Positions 1 to 6,197 of a stretch of 6,197 nucleotides of DNA are shown here, one piece after another. Source of the DNA: a virus. Taxonomy: Monodnaviria > Loebvirae > Hofneiviricota > Faserviricetes > Tubulavirales > Inoviridae. The stretch lies in IMG/VR virus record IMGVR_UViG_2537562019_000017, one strand, 5' to 3'. The notes beneath the pieces were generated by a model. That model was not told where the DNA came from. It saw only the letters and a program-made list of their open reading frames with translations, and made no database searches. Numbering within the stretch: the first letter of the stretch is position 1; each line of letters opens with the position of its first letter. Both the position numbers and the translations under genes were made by a program.

Positions 1-286
1 ATGAAATGTTATAAGTTACTCCTTCCCTCCCCTCCATTGACCAGACGCGAACATATACAGGTATCTGGACTAACTTACCGATAAAATTATTTGCCTGATT
101 CATTACACCGGCATTAACAAGAGCCTGAGATACACGAATAATAATCTGGTCTTGCTTAGTGCCACCAAAACCATCAGGAATCTCTAAGCCAACACCAATT
201 TCATTATAGTATCCCTGACCATTGACCTTATTACGCTGGCGAGCACCAAGCATTTTACCTTTTACAAAAAGACCATAATTAGACAT
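1..286 (-). CDS. Small phage protein, partial (C-terminus lies left of the window); position suggests a filamentous-phage ssDNA-binding protein (gV/RstB-like), function unconfirmed
   Basis: Minus-strand ATG at 284..286 preceded by a strong RBS (AAAGGAG, 287..297) that overlaps the rep stop codon. The frame stays open to the window edge (at least 95 aa, MSNYGLFVKGKMLGARQRNKVNGQGYYNEIGVGLEIPDGFGGTKQDQIIIRVSQALVNAGVMNQANNFIGKLVQIPVYVRVW...). Small, Gly-rich, directly downstream of rep and translationally coupled, as for gV/rstB in inoviruses. Not in the supplied ORF track; translated by hand. Confidence 0.5.
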   Translation of the reverse strand, partial: MSNYGLFVKGKMLGARQRNKVNGQGYYNEIGVGLEIPDGFGGTKQDQIIIRVSQALVNAGVMNQANNFIGKLVQIPVYVRVWSMEGREGVTYNIS

Positions 287-297
287 ATCACTCTCCT

Positions 298-1350
298 TTA
301 ATGCCAGTTACTGGCATGTGAAATACGGTTATAATCGAAAATTAAACCTTTCTCATAAACCCATGATGGAATTTTGGCTGGTTTGGCTTCAAGAGTACGA
401 ACCAACGGAACAACGTTATTAGAATCCGGTGACTCACAATAAAAGTTAATATCTATTCCGAAAGAAAGTAATTCTTTACGGTGTCGGTAGAATGTAGGTT
501 TCGGTAACATCTCTTTCATGTTCGCGCCCTGCTTCCACAATAAATATGTAGACTGTATTTTTCTTGGGAGATTAATTATTTTTTCATCAGTTAATATGGT
601 ATTTTGATTCATTTCTATTCTCCCTACATAGTCAGAGAATAATTTATTGGGCGTCTCAATATTCCAGCTATTACCAAGCGTAAGATTCAAATCAATTAAT
701 TCAGTTGTTCTTAATGTTAATTCAATGCGTAATTTATCTTTTGACCAGTCCAGTAAACCAGCTTTAACGAATTCGTCTGCCATCTGGTGCCCTTTTTTGC
801 CAGATGTATGCTCATCATATTTTGAATAAAATTTCAGGCTCCAACGACGGGAGTTTTTCCCTAAGTAAACAGTGCCACCTTTACCACAGGCGCGACCGTG
901 GCGAGTTTTAGCTTTAAATTCTGCGGCATATAGCCATGCGCGGACATTTTCTAATGTTGACAATGAATACATATAGTTGATATCAATACGCGAGATCTTA
1001 AATTGCCCTGCCATTACCTGTCGATAGGATGAAAGATCATGAGGAATATGCAGTAATGCCAATATTCTGGCATAAGCTGTTAATACTAACCCTTGCAAAT
1101 CATCGGAACCGATAACAGAGTGACCTTGCAAAAACTTTGACGGATTGCCGTCAATATAGAGATGTGTTGCCCGACCTTCGCCATCAGATCCAACAGATCT
1201 TACTTTCATAGTGGATTCATACGAACCGCGAACAGTCAACCGTTTTACTGTTTCCCACTCCACTGCACCGTCAGCATCAACGCTGACGACACTACCAGCC
1301 GGTAATGGTCGGTGTATGCAAGGTAGGATCCCGGTAAACCAGTCAATCAT
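298..1350 (-). CDS. Rolling-circle replication initiation protein, filamentous-phage gII/RstA-like (Phage_CRI-type), copy 1
   Basis: 350-aa ORF with ATG at 1348..1350 and a GAGG RBS 6 nt upstream on the minus strand. The block ...HLYIDGNPSKFLQGHSVIG... and the Tyr-containing LKFYSKYDE segment resemble, from memory, inovirus Rep proteins. Sits between a divergent HTH regulator and a small ssDNA-binding-like gene. Confidence 0.7.
   Translation of the reverse strand: MIDWFTGILPCIHRPLPAGSVVSVDADGAVEWETVKRLTVRGSYESTMKVRSVGSDGEGRATHLYIDGNPSKFLQGHSVIGSDDLQGLVLTAYARILALLHIPHDLSSYRQVMAGQFKISRIDINYMYSLSTLENVRAWLYAAEFKAKTRHGRACGKGGTVYLGKNSRRWSLKFYSKYDEHTSGKKGHQMADEFVKAGLLDWSKDKLRIELTLRTTELIDLNLTLGNSWNIETPNKLFSDYVGRIEMNQNTILTDEKIINLPRKIQSTYLLWKQGANMKEMLPKPTFYRHRKELLSFGIDINFYCESPDSNNVVPLVRTLEAKPAKIPSWVYEKGLIFDYNRISHASNWH
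301..317. other. 17-bp perfect palindrome ATGCCAGT-T-ACTGGCAT at the 3' end of rep (copies at 2132..2148 and 3963..3979)
   Basis: Read directly from the sequence; 8-bp arms around a single central base. Overlaps the last six codons of rep and lies 15 nt upstream of the RBS of the small downstream gene. Confidence 0.6.
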
Positions 1351-1517
1351 GTATCGCCTCAGAGAACAATTTTGTGACCAGAAAGCCTGTCAAGAGCTTA
1401 TTAGTACCAATTCAGTCACACAAATGTACAACCCAAGATCTTACCTCTCAAGTGATTTTGTACTGGATAAGTGACATATTTGTTCTTTTGAAATGGAGCA
1501 AAAAAGTAGGATATAGA
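1351..1517. promoter_or_regulatory. Divergent control region between rep and the repressor-like gene (candidate promoters, operators, possibly replication origin), copy 1
   Basis: 167-bp non-coding gap between two divergently transcribed start codons. Contains three GTAC cores (1404..1407, 1426..1429, 1460..1463) within TTAGTAC / TTGTACA(rev) / TTGTACT motifs, three GTGAC/GTCAC motifs (1374..1378, 1415..1419, 1471..1475) and the 8-bp palindrome AAGATCTT (1435..1442). Exact -35/-10 elements could not be assigned confidently. Confidence 0.5.
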
Positions 1518-1970
1518 ATGAGCAACAACTTCAACAGTAATGGCTACCCGGAAGAAATGGCAGAAGACATAGACTTACAGCGGGCAGAAAGGATAAAAAA
1601 AGCGATCCTAAGCAAATTCACATACGAAAGGATGGAAGAACTGTCTGGCATCAACATTGGCACACTGAAACGGATCGCAAACGCACAGAGGGATGCGAAA
1701 ATCAGTGAGCTGGAAAAAATTGCTGAAATCACTCAGACAGACATATTTGAACTGATTTTTGGCTCCAGTAGCAGTGATATCTACGATTCCAGCAAACGCT
1801 TCTTTGAGACGAGAAGTAAAGATGCGGCTCAGGCGGCTCAATTCATCATCTACAATCTTCGTACCCTTGATGATGAGGACATCCTTTGTTTGGGGAGGGT
1901 TTCGAGTGCCTTGCAAACAGCAACAACATCAAGAAAATGGGATGAGCTTTTCGGGAAGAAGAAAGGCTGA
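1518..1970 (+). CDS. XRE-family (Cro/cI-type) helix-turn-helix transcriptional regulator, phage repressor-like, copy 1
   Basis: ATG at 1518 with AGGA RBS 6 nt upstream; 150 aa. Residues about 21-80 (RAERIKKAILSKFTYERMEELSGINIGTLKRIANAQRDAKISELEKIAEITQTDIFELIF) fit the XRE HTH pattern. Followed by a Ser-rich linker and a roughly 60-aa C-terminal region of unknown function. The track's longer ORF from GTG 1374 would run through the control region and lacks an RBS, so the ATG at 1518 is preferred. Confidence 0.75.
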   Translation: MSNNFNSNGYPEEMAEDIDLQRAERIKKAILSKFTYERMEELSGINIGTLKRIANAQRDAKISELEKIAEITQTDIFELIFGSSSSDIYDSSKRFFETRSKDAAQAAQFIIYNLRTLDDEDILCLGRVSSALQTATTSRKWDELFGKKKG

Positions 1971-1973
1971 GTC

Positions 1974-2117
1974 TCAGAAATGAGACAAACGTGCAGTATT
2001 ACCATCAGGAATCTCTAAGCCAACACCAATTTCATTATAGTATCCCTGACCATTGACCTTATTACGCTGGCGAGCACCAAGCATTTTACCTTTTACAAAA
2101 AGACCATAATTAGACAT
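1974..2117 (-). pseudogene. Junction-truncated chimeric copy of the small gV-like gene (47 aa), copy 2
   Basis: Same start and RBS as the gene at 1..286, but after codon 39 the reading frame crosses the repeat junction (2000/2001) and ends after 8 junction-derived codons (NTARLSHF, stop at 1974..1976). Confidence 0.5.
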
Positions 2118-2128
2118 ATCACTCTCCT

Positions 2129-3181
2129 TTAATGCCAGTTACTGGCATGTGAAATACGGTTATAATCGAAAATTAAACCTTTCTCATAAACCCATGATGG
2201 AATTTTGGCTGGTTTGGCTTCAAGAGTACGAACCAACGGAACAACGTTATTAGAATCCGGTGACTCACAATAAAAGTTAATATCTATTCCGAAAGAAAGT
2301 AATTCTTTACGGTGTCGGTAGAATGTAGGTTTCGGTAACATCTCTTTCATGTTCGCGCCCTGCTTCCACAATAAATATGTAGACTGTATTTTTCTTGGGA
2401 GATTAATTATTTTTTCATCAGTTAATATGGTATTTTGATTCATTTCTATTCTCCCTACATAGTCAGAGAATAATTTATTGGGCGTCTCAATATTCCAGCT
2501 ATTACCAAGCGTAAGATTCAAATCAATTAATTCAGTTGTTCTTAATGTTAATTCAATGCGTAATTTATCTTTTGACCAGTCCAGTAAACCAGCTTTAACG
2601 AATTCGTCTGCCATCTGGTGCCCTTTTTTGCCAGATGTATGCTCATCATATTTTGAATAAAATTTCAGGCTCCAACGACGGGAGTTTTTCCCTAAGTAAA
2701 CAGTGCCACCTTTACCACAGGCGCGACCGTGGCGAGTTTTAGCTTTAAATTCTGCGGCATATAGCCATGCGCGGACATTTTCTAATGTTGACAATGAATA
2801 CATATAGTTGATATCAATACGCGAGATCTTAAATTGCCCTGCCATTACCTGTCGATAGGATGAAAGATCATGAGGAATATGCAGTAATGCCAATATTCTG
2901 GCATAAGCTGTTAATACTAACCCTTGCAAATCATCGGAACCGATAACAGAGTGACCTTGCAAAAACTTTGACGGATTGCCGTCAATATAGAGATGTGTTG
3001 CCCGACCTTCGCCATCAGATCCAACAGATCTTACTTTCATAGTGGATTCATACGAACCGCGAACAGTCAACCGTTTTACTGTTTCCCACTCCACTGCACC
3101 GTCAGCATCAACGCTGACGACACTACCAGCCGGTAATGGTCGGTGTATGCAAGGTAGGATCCCGGTAAACCAGTCAATCAT
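2129..3181 (-). CDS. Rolling-circle replication initiation protein, filamentous-phage gII/RstA-like, copy 2
   Basis: Identical 350-aa translation to copy 1, offset by 1,831 bp. Confidence 0.7.
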   Translation of the reverse strand: MIDWFTGILPCIHRPLPAGSVVSVDADGAVEWETVKRLTVRGSYESTMKVRSVGSDGEGRATHLYIDGNPSKFLQGHSVIGSDDLQGLVLTAYARILALLHIPHDLSSYRQVMAGQFKISRIDINYMYSLSTLENVRAWLYAAEFKAKTRHGRACGKGGTVYLGKNSRRWSLKFYSKYDEHTSGKKGHQMADEFVKAGLLDWSKDKLRIELTLRTTELIDLNLTLGNSWNIETPNKLFSDYVGRIEMNQNTILTDEKIINLPRKIQSTYLLWKQGANMKEMLPKPTFYRHRKELLSFGIDINFYCESPDSNNVVPLVRTLEAKPAKIPSWVYEKGLIFDYNRISHASNWH

Positions 3182-3348
3182 GTATCGCCTCAGAGAACAA
3201 TTTTGTGACCAGAAAGCCTGTCAAGAGCTTATTAGTACCAATTCAGTCACACAAATGTACAACCCAAGATCTTACCTCTCAAGTGATTTTGTACTGGATA
3301 AGTGACATATTTGTTCTTTTGAAATGGAGCAAAAAAGTAGGATATAGA
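3182..3348. promoter_or_regulatory. Divergent control region, copy 2
   Basis: Copy of 1351..1517 offset by 1,831 bp; identical in spot checks. Confidence 0.5.
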
Positions 3349-3801
3349 ATGAGCAACAACTTCAACAGTAATGGCTACCCGGAAGAAATGGCAGAAGACA
3401 TAGACTTACAGCGGGCAGAAAGGATAAAAAAAGCGATCCTAAGCAAATTCACATACGAAAGGATGGAAGAACTGTCTGGCATCAACATTGGCACACTGAA
3501 ACGGATCGCAAACGCACAGAGGGATGCGAAAATCAGTGAGCTGGAAAAAATTGCTGAAATCACTCAGACAGACATATTTGAACTGATTTTTGGCTCCAGT
3601 AGCAGTGATATCTACGATTCCAGCAAACGCTTCTTTGAGACGAGAAGTAAAGATGCGGCTCAGGCGGCTCAATTCATCATCTACAATCTTCGTACCCTTG
3701 ATGATGAGGACATCCTTTGTTTGGGGAGGGTTTCGAGTGCCTTGCAAACAGCAACAACATCAAGAAAATGGGATGAGCTTTTCGGGAAGAAGAAAGGCTG
3801 A
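3349..3801 (+). CDS. XRE-family HTH transcriptional regulator, phage repressor-like, copy 2
   Basis: Identical translation to copy 1; ATG at 3349 with the same RBS. Confidence 0.75.
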   Translation: MSNNFNSNGYPEEMAEDIDLQRAERIKKAILSKFTYERMEELSGINIGTLKRIANAQRDAKISELEKIAEITQTDIFELIFGSSSSDIYDSSKRFFETRSKDAAQAAQFIIYNLRTLDDEDILCLGRVSSALQTATTSRKWDELFGKKKG

Positions 3802-3804
3802 GTC

Positions 3805-3948
3805 TCAGAAATGAGACAAACGTGCAGTATTACCATCAGGAATCTCTAAGCCAACACCAATTTCATTATAGTATCCCTGACCATTGACCTTATTACGCTG
3901 GCGAGCACCAAGCATTTTACCTTTTACAAAAAGACCATAATTAGACAT
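3805..3948 (-). pseudogene. Junction-truncated chimeric copy of the small gV-like gene (47 aa), copy 3
   Basis: Copy of 1974..2117 offset by 1,831 bp. Confidence 0.5.
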
Positions 3949-3959
3949 ATCACTCTCCT

Positions 3960-5012
3960 TTAATGCCAGTTACTGGCATGTGAAATACGGTTATAATCGA
4001 AAATTAAACCTTTCTCATAAACCCATGATGGAATTTTGGCTGGTTTGGCTTCAAGAGTACGAACCAACGGAACAACGTTATTAGAATCCGGTGACTCACA
4101 ATAAAAGTTAATATCTATTCCGAAAGAAAGTAATTCTTTACGGTGTCGGTAGAATGTAGGTTTCGGTAACATCTCTTTCATGTTCGCGCCCTGCTTCCAC
4201 AATAAATATGTAGACTGTATTTTTCTTGGGAGATTAATTATTTTTTCATCAGTTAATATGGTATTTTGATTCATTTCTATTCTCCCTACATAGTCAGAGA
4301 ATAATTTATTGGGCGTCTCAATATTCCAGCTATTACCAAGCGTAAGATTCAAATCAATTAATTCAGTTGTTCTTAATGTTAATTCAATGCGTAATTTATC
4401 TTTTGACCAGTCCAGTAAACCAGCTTTAACGAATTCGTCTGCCATCTGGTGCCCTTTTTTGCCAGATGTATGCTCATCATATTTTGAATAAAATTTCAGG
4501 CTCCAACGACGGGAGTTTTTCCCTAAGTAAACAGTGCCACCTTTACCACAGGCGCGACCGTGGCGAGTTTTAGCTTTAAATTCTGCGGCATATAGCCATG
4601 CGCGGACATTTTCTAATGTTGACAATGAATACATATAGTTGATATCAATACGCGAGATCTTAAATTGCCCTGCCATTACCTGTCGATAGGATGAAAGATC
4701 ATGAGGAATATGCAGTAATGCCAATATTCTGGCATAAGCTGTTAATACTAACCCTTGCAAATCATCGGAACCGATAACAGAGTGACCTTGCAAAAACTTT
4801 GACGGATTGCCGTCAATATAGAGATGTGTTGCCCGACCTTCGCCATCAGATCCAACAGATCTTACTTTCATAGTGGATTCATACGAACCGCGAACAGTCA
4901 ACCGTTTTACTGTTTCCCACTCCACTGCACCGTCAGCATCAACGCTGACGACACTACCAGCCGGTAATGGTCGGTGTATGCAAGGTAGGATCCCGGTAAA
5001 CCAGTCAATCAT
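3960..5012 (-). CDS. Rolling-circle replication initiation protein, filamentous-phage gII/RstA-like, copy 3
   Basis: Identical 350-aa translation to copies 1 and 2. Confidence 0.7.
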   Translation of the reverse strand: MIDWFTGILPCIHRPLPAGSVVSVDADGAVEWETVKRLTVRGSYESTMKVRSVGSDGEGRATHLYIDGNPSKFLQGHSVIGSDDLQGLVLTAYARILALLHIPHDLSSYRQVMAGQFKISRIDINYMYSLSTLENVRAWLYAAEFKAKTRHGRACGKGGTVYLGKNSRRWSLKFYSKYDEHTSGKKGHQMADEFVKAGLLDWSKDKLRIELTLRTTELIDLNLTLGNSWNIETPNKLFSDYVGRIEMNQNTILTDEKIINLPRKIQSTYLLWKQGANMKEMLPKPTFYRHRKELLSFGIDINFYCESPDSNNVVPLVRTLEAKPAKIPSWVYEKGLIFDYNRISHASNWH

Positions 5013-5179
5013 GTATCGCCTCAGAGAACAATTTTGTGACCAGAAAGCCTGTCAAGAGCTTATTAGTACCAATTCAGTCACACAAATGTACAACCCAAGA
5101 TCTTACCTCTCAAGTGATTTTGTACTGGATAAGTGACATATTTGTTCTTTTGAAATGGAGCAAAAAAGTAGGATATAGA
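5013..5179. promoter_or_regulatory. Divergent control region, copy 3
   Basis: Copy of 1351..1517 offset by 3,662 bp. Confidence 0.5.
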
Positions 5180-5632
5180 ATGAGCAACAACTTCAACAGT
5201 AATGGCTACCCGGAAGAAATGGCAGAAGACATAGACTTACAGCGGGCAGAAAGGATAAAAAAAGCGATCCTAAGCAAATTCACATACGAAAGGATGGAAG
5301 AACTGTCTGGCATCAACATTGGCACACTGAAACGGATCGCAAACGCACAGAGGGATGCGAAAATCAGTGAGCTGGAAAAAATTGCTGAAATCACTCAGAC
5401 AGACATATTTGAACTGATTTTTGGCTCCAGTAGCAGTGATATCTACGATTCCAGCAAACGCTTCTTTGAGACGAGAAGTAAAGATGCGGCTCAGGCGGCT
5501 CAATTCATCATCTACAATCTTCGTACCCTTGATGATGAGGACATCCTTTGTTTGGGGAGGGTTTCGAGTGCCTTGCAAACAGCAACAACATCAAGAAAAT
5601 GGGATGAGCTTTTCGGGAAGAAGAAAGGCTGA
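5180..5632 (+). CDS. XRE-family HTH transcriptional regulator, phage repressor-like, copy 3
   Basis: Identical translation to copies 1 and 2; ATG at 5180. Confidence 0.75.
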   Translation: MSNNFNSNGYPEEMAEDIDLQRAERIKKAILSKFTYERMEELSGINIGTLKRIANAQRDAKISELEKIAEITQTDIFELIFGSSSSDIYDSSKRFFETRSKDAAQAAQFIIYNLRTLDDEDILCLGRVSSALQTATTSRKWDELFGKKKG

Positions 5633-5651
5633 GTCTCAGAAATGAGACAAA

Positions 5652-5676
5652 CGTGCAGTATTACCAACACTGCACG
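5652..5676. other. Inverted repeat / hairpin (8-bp stem CGTGCAGT...ACTGCACG, 9-nt loop ATTACCAAC) spanning the right array boundary
   Basis: Read directly from the sequence. The left arm lies inside the repeat unit (also at 1990..1997 and 3821..3828); the right arm exists only in the right flank. The ACCA junction microhomology (5663..5666) is in the loop. Lies 20 nt downstream of the repressor stop; no adjacent U-tract. Confidence 0.6.
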
Positions 5677-5716
5677 TTCTGGATTGAGCGATTTTTAAAC
5701 ACCAGAAAAAGGGTAA

Positions 5717-6115
5717 ATGATGAACAAAACAGTGTATGTACCAAGCTACTTCCAGCCTATCTACAAAGAAGTAACCATCAAAGTTCCTACCGGAAACACA
5801 AAACGATTCCTGGGTCTCATCGACATTGAAGAAAAAATCCGAAAAAGAGAAGTTATTCAGGATGGCTGGTCTGATTGCCAGATTGACGGGGAAAGACTCA
5901 ATGAAGATGTTGGTCGAGCCATTAATAAACTTAATCGGGAAGGGTATGAGGTTATTTCAATAACCCCTGCTACCTCAGGAAGCTGGGCTTATAAATATAA
6001 ACAAAACAGTATTCGTAATGGAAACGGTGATGGCAGTTATGGATATGGTTACGGTTATTCATACACCGAAGGCGTTATGATTCTGGCAAAGAAAATTGAG
6101 AAAGAGGACGTCTGA
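5717..6115 (+). CDS. Hypothetical protein, 132 aa, with a Gly/Tyr low-complexity segment (GNGDGSYGYGYGYSY)
   Basis: ATG ATG start at 5717/5720 with an AAGGG RBS upstream. No N-terminal hydrophobic signal sequence. The C-terminal part (REGYEVISITP...GVMILAKK) is vaguely reminiscent of small DUF4177-like proteins, but I cannot confirm this without a search. Confidence 0.6.
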   Translation: MMNKTVYVPSYFQPIYKEVTIKVPTGNTKRFLGLIDIEEKIRKREVIQDGWSDCQIDGERLNEDVGRAINKLNREGYEVISITPATSGSWAYKYKQNSIRNGNGDGSYGYGYGYSYTEGVMILAKKIEKEDV

Positions 6116-6117
6116 TA

Positions 6118-6197
6118 ATGGATTTTATCCGTAAAACTTTGGGTGGATTAAAAGCAAGTTATTATATCCGTCACTTCGTTTTTGGTGCATTAATTTC
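6118..6197 (+). CDS. Hypothetical protein, N-terminal fragment (runs off the window); hydrophobic N-terminus suggests a membrane protein
   Basis: ATG at 6118, two nt after the TGA stop of the upstream gene, with a GAGGA RBS about 10 nt upstream (translational coupling). Translation MDFIRKTLGGLKASYYIRHFVFGALI... Confidence 0.45.
   Translation, partial: MDFIRKTLGGLKASYYIRHFVFGALI

Follow-up and report, generated by a model that had tools for sequence, protein, structure and literature searches.

Predicted operators in the triplicated divergent rep/regulator spacer of a CUS-1/Ypfφ-like filamentous prophage

The intergenic region ig-2 of the filamentous phage CTXφ spans 138 bp and carries adjacent divergent promoters together with three sites for RstR (PMC4762005), which represses the rstA promoter as a dimer of dimers (PMC8402870). 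For the Ypfφ/CUS-1 family, a 2014 review describes the intergenic region as 'believed to be involved in transcription initiation', calls YPO2273 an RstR homologue and states that the regulator's role 'awaits experimental demonstration' (PMC4266046). Prophages of this type have been linked to fitness and virulence in Escherichia coli K1 and Yersinia pestis. Here, we examine the 167-bp spacer that separates the replication gene rep from a divergently transcribed regulator gene in a 6,197-nucleotide stretch of inovirus DNA (the window; IMG/VR record IMGVR_UViG_2537562019_000017). On the basis of sequence comparison, we assign a probability of about 0.7 to the reading in which this spacer serves a CUS-1/Ypfφ-like filamentous prophage as its divergent promoter/operator (immunity) region, repressed by the regulator at three dyads.

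The locus resembles the rstR/ig-2/rstA region of CTXφ in that a repressor and a gpII-family rep gene diverge over a short spacer (138 bp in CTXφ, 167 bp here), three repressor sites there correspond to three predicted here, and the spacer and repressor together make up a variable cassette of the heteroimmunity type. The limits of this cassette emerge from a comparison with L003, a CUS-1-like prophage of strain MS8345 (comparison loci are designated by L numbers). The window type and L003 share 98% DNA identity as far as the final base of the rep ATG, show no detectable similarity over the spacer and regulator (620 bp), and become similar again, over 81 bp, from the final base of the regulator stop codon onwards; their regulators, both in PHROG 3557, are 40% identical. 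With its ends set precisely by these two codons, the segment of spacer and regulator constitutes a discrete exchangeable cassette, like ig-2 plus rstR. A preliminary description of the window, made from the letters alone, had likened the region to the rstR-rstA switch, and the exact cassette ends, together with three predicted dyads of which one lies over the predicted rep -10, support that likeness. The divergent arrangement of regulator and rep recurs in L003, L009, L018, L019, L021 and L022, and a regulator homologue faces a rep gene in most of the loci compared; in L023, two small open reading frames (ORFs) lie between the two genes.

There are also differences from CTXφ. RstA production in CTXφ is under SOS control, whereas no LexA box (CTGT-N8-ACAG with at most one mismatch) was found in positions 1331-1540 of the window, where the sole two-mismatch match overlaps the rep start codon. 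The sites predicted here are 16-bp dyads, and RstR footprints are much larger than 16 bp. When the window regulator (E ≤ 1e-3) and the L003 regulator (E ≤ 1) were searched by tblastn against 50,697 phage records, no CTXφ record appeared among the matches listed, the presence of CTXφ in that collection being unchecked. Within the family itself, the window shares its gene order and its hipBA/dif position with the YPO2273-YPO2274 region of CUS-1 (E. coli O18:K1:H7) and Ypfφ (Yersinia pestis). Its gene V (gV) product has the same protein accession as that of the CUS-1-like L003, the origin hairpins are common to both and the regulators are homologous, whereas the immunity allele is a different one, with an unrelated spacer and a predicted half-site of GTSACA here versus TGCTCA in L003, and two different cargo ORFs follow the origin.

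The signal that rises above chance within the spacer is a three-copy element (Table 1). Ten columns are invariant among its three 15-mers, as happened in 0 of 150 and 1 of 200 shuffles, and the pattern derived from these 15-mers, GWACAWWTNTGTSAC, matches only the three spacer sites in the whole window, even when one mismatch is allowed. Read as 16-mers, the sites form imperfect dyads of the type GTSACA-N4-TGTWCW, each with one good and one weaker half-site, and are designated here as the predicted operators O_A, O_C and O_D; O_A is inverted relative to the other two. Among the eight distinct variants of the window-type spacer that served for conservation comparisons, 10 of 48 positions inside the three 16-mers vary, as opposed to 60 of the 119 outside them (one-sided Fisher p=0.0003), and half of the 10 variable positions inside the 16-mers fall in the N4 spacers. 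L009 is the only well-diverged partner of the same immunity type: its regulator is 86% identical to that of the window, third-codon identity is about 0.49 and spacer identity is 0.675. Within this background, the near-perfect blocks coincide with O_A, O_C and O_D, with 16 of 16 positions identical at 1414-1429 (O_C) and 25 of 27 at 1459-1485 (the O_D block), while identity falls to 30-45% in a trough at 1430-1458. In L009, O_A and O_D form an exact inverted repeat (12/12; 7 of 200 shuffles). A metagenome scan for more divergent spacers, conducted with a 22-base pattern of the O_D site, yielded no new variants.

Table 1. Positions of genes, predicted control elements and the predicted origin in the window
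Feature	Position	Strand	Description	Further copies
Intergenic control region, copy 1	1351-1517		Spacer between rep and regulator, identical in all copies	3182-3348, 5013-5179
Predicted operator O_A	1363-1378	+	AGAACA-ATTT-TGTGAC; in predicted rep leader, 14-28 nucleotides upstream of rep ATG	3194-3209, 5025-5040
Predicted operator O_C	1415-1430	-	GTCACA-CAAA-TGTACA; over -10 and predicted rep start	3246-3261, 5077-5092
Predicted operator O_D	1471-1486	-	GTGACA-TATT-TGTTCT; regulator side, overlaps candidate regulator -10 CATATT (1475-1480)	3302-3317, 5133-5148
GAACAATTTTGTGAC	1364-1378	+	15-mer of three-copy element	
GTACATTTGTGTGAC	1415-1429	-	15-mer of three-copy element	
GAACAAATATGTCAC	1471-1485	-	15-mer of three-copy element	
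Predicted rep promoter	1423-1451	-	-35 TTGAGA (1451-1446), 17-bp spacer with AAGATCTT, -10 TACATT (1428-1423)	
TGTCAAGA	1388-1395	-	TTGACA on rep-sense strand, 38-45 nucleotides upstream of rep ATG	3219-3226, 5050-5057
Single-base variant	1430		A here; C in relatives read, T in L009	3261, 5092
150-aa regulator	1518-1970	+	PHROG 3557, 1.4e-68	3349-3801, 5180-5632
Rep, gpII/X-family rolling-circle initiator	298-1350	-	Pfam Phage_CRI 1.2e-72, G2P_X_C 3.5e-34	2129-3181, 3960-5012
Predicted (+) origin	5633-5678	-	Outside the switch; hairpin 1 GTCTCA-GAAA-TGAGAC (5633-5648), hairpin 2 (5650-5678, viral-strand loop GGT)	

The preliminary description had delimited the spacer correctly by the divergent start codons of rep (1350-1348, minus strand) and the regulator (1518-1520), and had noted that it occurs three times; the copies are identical and lie within a perfect tandem triplication of an 1831-bp unit. 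All of the motifs that it named are present where it placed them, namely GTAC at 1404, 1426 and 1460 (in TTAGTAC at 1401, TGTACAA at 1425 and TTGTACT at 1458), GTGAC at 1374 and 1471, GTCAC at 1415, and the palindrome AAGATCTT at 1435-1442 with its GATC at 1437. Such words are individually rare in 2000 dinucleotide shuffles of the spacer, in which GTAC occurred at least three times in 15 and GTGAC/GTCAC at least three times in 8, but post-hoc equivalents are common: some 5-mer class occurred at least three times in 1968 shuffles, some palindromic 4-mer at least three times in 702, and a palindrome of at least 8 bp in 885. The motif counts are at chance level once the post-hoc choice is allowed for, and GATC is not enriched (8 in the 1831-bp unit).

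These motifs nevertheless define an alternative, in which the operators would be the GTAC-core heptamers and the AAGATCTT palindrome, with Dam methylation of the GATC modulating the switch. Apart from the rarity of three GTACs for that particular word, this is favored by the location of the GATC in the rep-promoter spacer, at nearly the same place as in the heteroimmune L003, and by the GTACs at 1404 and 1460, each of which lies 7 nucleotides beyond O_C and O_D, respectively, and could act as an auxiliary half-site. We consider it quite improbable, as six of the eight positions of AAGATCTT vary among the eight spacer variants, the palindrome is absent from L009 and L017 and occupies the most variable stretch, and conservation of the GTAC heptamers is at background level relative to the rest of the spacer (p=0.14), GTAC 1404 being lost in L009 and GTAC 1460 in L008. 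The opposite-strand TTGTACA, for its part, exists only in the window, through a private A at 1430. Conservation of GTGAC/GTCAC is borderline when taken alone (p=0.06), and these three words are the good half-sites of the predicted dyads. The earlier assignment of motifs is mostly wrong: it holds for GTGAC/GTCAC, in their capacity as half-sites of a predicted 16-bp dyad, and not for AAGATCTT, which is unconstrained; among the GTACs, only that at 1426 lies in a predicted site, as part of the weak half of the middle dyad. As a separate observation, the GATC within AGATCT occupies nearly the same place in the predicted rep-promoter spacer in two unrelated cassettes (window 1437-1440 and L003 10426-10429), which may be coincidence or reflect a dispensable Dam input.

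A promoter is predicted on the rep strand, where TTGAGA-17-TACATT is the sole match of a consensus promoter scan of positions 1200-2150 and also the best match in the window to a simple position weight matrix (PWM) of σ70 frequencies, whose scores serve as a ranking only. An equivalent TTGNNN-17-TA..(A/T)T is the top rep-strand PWM match in L003, L008, L009, L017, L018, L021, L022 and L023, despite their diverged spacers. Relative to the window, L009 retains the TTG of the -35, the entire -10 and the distance between them, but its promoter spacer has diverged, including AAGATCTT. The rep transcript is predicted to start near 1416, with a leader of about 65 nucleotides. In the opposite direction, the better-placed candidate promoter for the regulator consists of GTGATT (1452-1457), 17 bp and CATATT; it would stand back to back with the rep promoter, as in CTXφ (PMC4762005).

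The base at 1430 distinguishes the window from its relatives. It is position -14 of the predicted rep promoter, where the change from TGG-TACATT to TTG-TACATT removes a TGn extended -10, and it is also the outermost position of O_C, where the A raises the number of mismatches to the ideal dyad from two to three. All 15 complete E. coli genomes that contain the spacer match a 191-base query at 99.5% or 99.0%, none at 100%, and the A was not found in collections of viral and metagenome contigs.

Evidence that the dyads belong to the regulator comes from their co-variation with its recognition helix across alleles. The L018 regulator is 49% identical to that of the window and has the same recognition helix, NIGTLKRI; its spacer contains the perfect dyad GTCACA-GATT-TGTGAC, which matches the idealised GTSACA-N4-TGTSAC, and by our own estimate the chance of an exact match to the ideal dyad in about 140 bp is roughly 3e-5. 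A further copy with three mismatches lies over the L018 rep -10, and a site similar to O_A, read by eye, adjoins the rep ATG. Alleles with the helix S(V/I)STLVRI (L003, L021 and L022) carry dyads of the TGCTCA-N4-TGAGCA type, in three copies in L003 and in perfect form in L021, and L019 (helix NITTLKRI) carries GTGTCA-N4-TGGCAC. Given that the window type and L003 differ by only 2% in their rep DNA, the dyad elements follow the regulator and not Rep or the host.

This co-variation bears directly on the proposal that what binds the 16-mers is not the phage regulator but either Rep, with the 16-mers serving as origin iterons or in autoregulation, or a host protein comparable to RovA. RovA binds the putative YPO2274 promoter region in Ypfφ (PMC4266046), and the spacer does contain elements shared among alleles. 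TGTCAAGA, with its TTGACA, has counterparts of the form TGTCAA(G/T)A at a similar place in the heteroimmune L003, L021, L022 and L023 and is not allele-specific, because it is conserved in heteroimmune alleles; no good -10 follows the TTGACA, and the element is a candidate second -35 or host-factor site. The one IHF-like match with one mismatch lies at 1388-1400, and its L003 equivalent, judged by eye, falls outside the consensus. The rep-region DNA of L003 nevertheless adjoins TGCTCA elements in place of GTSACA, in step with the recognition helix, and at reasonable stringency no LexA, CRP or SlyA-like site was found in 1331-1540 (no CRP match better than three mismatches; no SlyA-like match with four or fewer). 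Binding of the 16-mers by Rep or a host protein is thus distinctly improbable.

An AlphaFold2 model of the regulator (predicted local distance difference test score, pLDDT, 81) places a five-helix helix-turn-helix (HTH) domain at residues 20-81 (helices 20-33, 36-43, 47-54, 62-72 and 76-81), followed by three C-terminal helices, and the modelled N-domain superposes on SinR, C.AhdI, P22 c2 and 434 Cro with a template modelling (TM) score of 0.8 and a root-mean-square deviation of 1.2-1.5 Å; according to the model, therefore, the regulator has the XRE/Cro-C1 HTH fold. It belongs to a small family, for which a search of 1.84 billion representatives gave 39 clusters (E ≤ 1e-3) and the word index six matches. 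With respect to its translation start, the ATG at 1518 has a conserved AGGA 6 nucleotides upstream, and most homologues begin at a Met aligned with M14 (MAD/MID...), codon 14 being 1557-1559; translation could start at 1557 besides or instead of 1518.

Several observations weigh against repression by the regulator at these dyads. Pairwise repeats in the window alone are at chance level (12/15 matches in 75 of 200 and 43 of 200 shuffles), L009 gives a weaker three-copy signal (9 invariant columns, 22 of 150 shuffles), and each window site lies three mismatches from the ideal dyad with one poor half-site, none of them being a true palindrome. The consensus of the dyad comes from the very sequence that it describes, the independent tests being the L018 palindrome and the conservation test. 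GTCACA...ATGTA around the rep -10 occurs in the heteroimmune L003 as well, and part of the O_C conservation may reflect the core promoter and not an operator. The P0010 locus (L024, helix NIGTLRRI) has neither such a dyad nor a rep neighbour; L011, which likewise lacks a neighbouring rep, is uninformative. Both candidate promoters of the regulator (GTGATT-17-CATATT and TTGAAA-18-TATAGA) are weak or not conserved, and Pfam HTH_3 scores below its gathering threshold for the regulator (E 7.3e-4, 20.0 versus 23 bits).

A further alternative is that the spacer contains two ordinary promoters only, that its repeats reflect chance and shared ancestry, and that the regulator acts elsewhere or does not repress rep. 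The chance-level pairwise repeats would fit this, as would the cautious wording of the family review on the regulator's role (PMC4266046). We regard it as unlikely in view of the three-copy statistic, the conservation test, the perfect dyad of L018, the co-variation of helix and half-site, and the fact that the exact cassette swap takes in the spacer.

Under regulator repression at three dyads, the reading we prefer, we infer binding, repression and the role of each site as follows. The σ70 promoter TTGAGA/TACATT would fire leftward into rep, gV and the virion genes, and the 150-aa XRE-fold regulator, transcribed rightward, would bind the three GTSACA-N4-TGTWCW dyads as a dimer. Occupation of O_C, over the -10 and start of the rep promoter, would switch off replication and virion production; O_D, which overlaps the regulator's own weak candidate promoter, would provide autoregulation; and O_A, in the rep leader, might assist through cooperative binding with O_C, at a centre-to-centre distance of 52 bp (about five helical turns). 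The preliminary description expected the repressor operators and the rep promoter in this spacer, and the prediction of an XRE-fold regulator/rep control region with a recurring promoter and three dyads agrees with it, although the sites are mostly not those that it named. Its general interpretation is sound and matches the existing assumption of the field for the CUS-1/Ypfφ family.

The same description had also invoked a cI/cro-type switch. As in the λ, 434 and P22 systems, an XRE-fold HTH repressor is combined with three related sites between divergent promoters, one of them predicted to lie over the lytic-side -10. The analogy ends there, since the repressor is not opposed by a second small, cro-like regulator, the leftward operon beginning instead with rep; all ORFs of at least 40 aa that touch the spacer are read-throughs overlapping rep or the regulator. 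Furthermore, the modelled C-terminal domain is helical and not peptidase-like, and the sites are spread over about 120 bp and do not stand side by side. The switch is a new immunity allele of conventional design, and its wider significance is modest. What it offers is a set of testable predictions for one immunity type, comprising the rep promoter, the three 16-bp sites and a half-site code that changes with the recognition helix; if that code is true, prophage immunity groups would be predictable from sequence.

The origins of Ff phages are found in the intergenic region beside gene II. By this precedent, and given the inverted repeats in the spacer, the latter could itself be or contain a replication origin, as the preliminary description suggested, or a packaging signal. 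Such a role is highly improbable: the spacer of L003 is unrelated despite 98% identical DNA through rep, and the window spacer, folded as viral-strand single-stranded DNA (ssDNA), shows no unusual structure (z=+0.68 versus shuffles). An origin-like element occurs elsewhere, as a double hairpin downstream of the regulator that is conserved in the heteroimmune L003 and has a viral-strand ssDNA fold of z=-4.74; its position beyond the 3' end of the repressor gene, with a predicted nick in the second loop, matches that of the (+) origin double hairpin of CTXφ. Two further copies, at the internal positions 1971-2004 and 3802-3835, are interrupted within the hairpin 2 loop. The perfect dyad of hairpin 1, GTCTCA-GAAA-TGAGAC (also at 1971-1986 and 3802-3817), begins at the base directly following the regulator stop codon and shares the 6-N4-6 geometry of the predicted operators, yet the heteroimmune L003 has it too. 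It may serve as a terminator stem, as an element bound by Rep or as the first hairpin of the origin.

The predicted origin also marks rearrangement junctions. Positions 170-5666 of the window form a perfect tandem triplication without a mismatch, in which each 1831-bp unit contains part of gV, rep, the 167-bp spacer and the HTH regulator, with 4 bp of microhomology (ACCA) at the junctions. These junctions (...GTGCAGTATTACCA|TCAGG..., 1991-2004 and 3822-3835) fall in the loop of hairpin 2. The same loop holds the junction (...TATTACC|GCGAAC...), with its other side inside rep, of an independent 776-bp duplication in strain LSN03-016011/A (L005 10991-11004), and in Klebsiella spallanzanii (L006 3474-3486) two copies stop matching at the same place (...TATTAC|GGG...); in this Klebsiella locus (L006/L007), a unique segment of 1271 bp follows the origin loop. 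All three junctions are compatible with a break at the G^T of viral-strand GG^TAAT, and they suggest that GG^TAAT is the Rep nick site and that the amplification arose when rolling-circle synthesis terminated aberrantly.

A tentative extension of this idea, less likely than not, is that the 1831-bp unit originated as an RS1-like mini-replicon through the action of the phage's own Rep and not by passive duplication. Rolling-circle synthesis would start at the origin nick (viral strand GG^TAAT, 5663/5664) and terminate at a look-alike site in gV (GATGG^TTTT, window 170-173), releasing a 1.8-kb circle with a hybrid origin, rep, the switch and the regulator, which would then re-enter the prophage by homologous recombination. 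Like the RS1 satellite of CTXφ and the miniphages of Ff, the unit is sub-genomic, holds rep, repressor, switch and origin sequences in tandem with a full prophage, and has one end at a predicted origin nick site; unlike RS1, it lacks an rstC-like antirepressor and ends inside gV. Were this route true, the origin loop would be a recurrent rearrangement hotspot, and the C-to-A change at -14 in all three copies could represent adaptive retuning of the amplified switch.

The preliminary description had further proposed that the amplification might alter the switch through titration. Derepression in this way is unlikely, since the repressor gene and its promoter increase in step (1:1) with the sites. 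Each 1831-bp repeat is a complete switch with rep and regulator, so that the repressor and its operators should scale together and the prophage should stay repressed. What the amplification does change is the dosage of rep, and it adds two hybrid origin junctions. Truncated gV frames of 47 aa also occur at the internal repeat junctions (1974-2117 and 3805-3948, minus strand); each comprises 39 N-terminal G5P residues and 8 junction-encoded residues and lies behind a complete rep.

The window is part of a chromosomal filamentous (CUS-1/Ypfφ-like) prophage of E. coli that adjoins hipBA. Positions 1-2100 are 100.0% (rounded) identical to the chromosome of E. coli O114:H49 strain 90-9280, ETEC-2264 matching equally well, and over all 6197 bases the window differs from 90-9280 only at 1430, 3261 and 5092. 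The prophage encodes, in order, a secretin, Zot, DUF2523, a large gene in the gpIII position, small coat genes, G5P and rep, beyond which lie the regulator in opposite orientation, two small ORFs and then hipBA; the leftmost gene of the window (partial) is that of the G5P ssDNA-binding protein (gV). As with CTXφ, the prophage sits in the dif region, by hipBA, and forms tandem arrays. UTI89, NU14 and other strains harbour related prophages, 98% identical in their rep DNA, which correspond to the CUS-1/Ypfφ family (PMC4266046). Megablast of window positions 1-2100 against deposited phages returned no match, and an Rfam search of the same positions at E ≤ 1 returned one chance-level match only.

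Between the origin and hipA, the plus strand carries a 132-aa ORF (5717-6115; PHROG 15841, with a weak DUF4177 match) and the start of a 120-aa ORF (6118-6197). L003, L004 and L009 have other ORFs at the position of these two, like the variable cargo ORFs of Ypfφ/CUS-1. Other kinds of array are found within the family: SW070919 (L030) has whole-prophage tandems with five spacer copies in the genome, and DA33137 (L002) has two copies. In E. coli ERP001 (L031 10840-13732), a deletion derivative that retains only rep, the spacer, the regulator and two cargo ORFs adjoins a damaged full prophage and resembles an RS1-like element.

The same immunity cassette also occurs in phages with different virion modules (L004 and L009). 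Compared with L001, the cassette and rep are joined in L004 and L005 to a set comprising DUF5455, an attachment protein and a major coat protein, and in L009 to an Ff/If1-like set of Phage_DNA_bind, coat gp8 and the G3P pilus-binding protein. The joining of the cassette and rep to differing virion modules indicates modular exchange among enterobacterial inoviruses.

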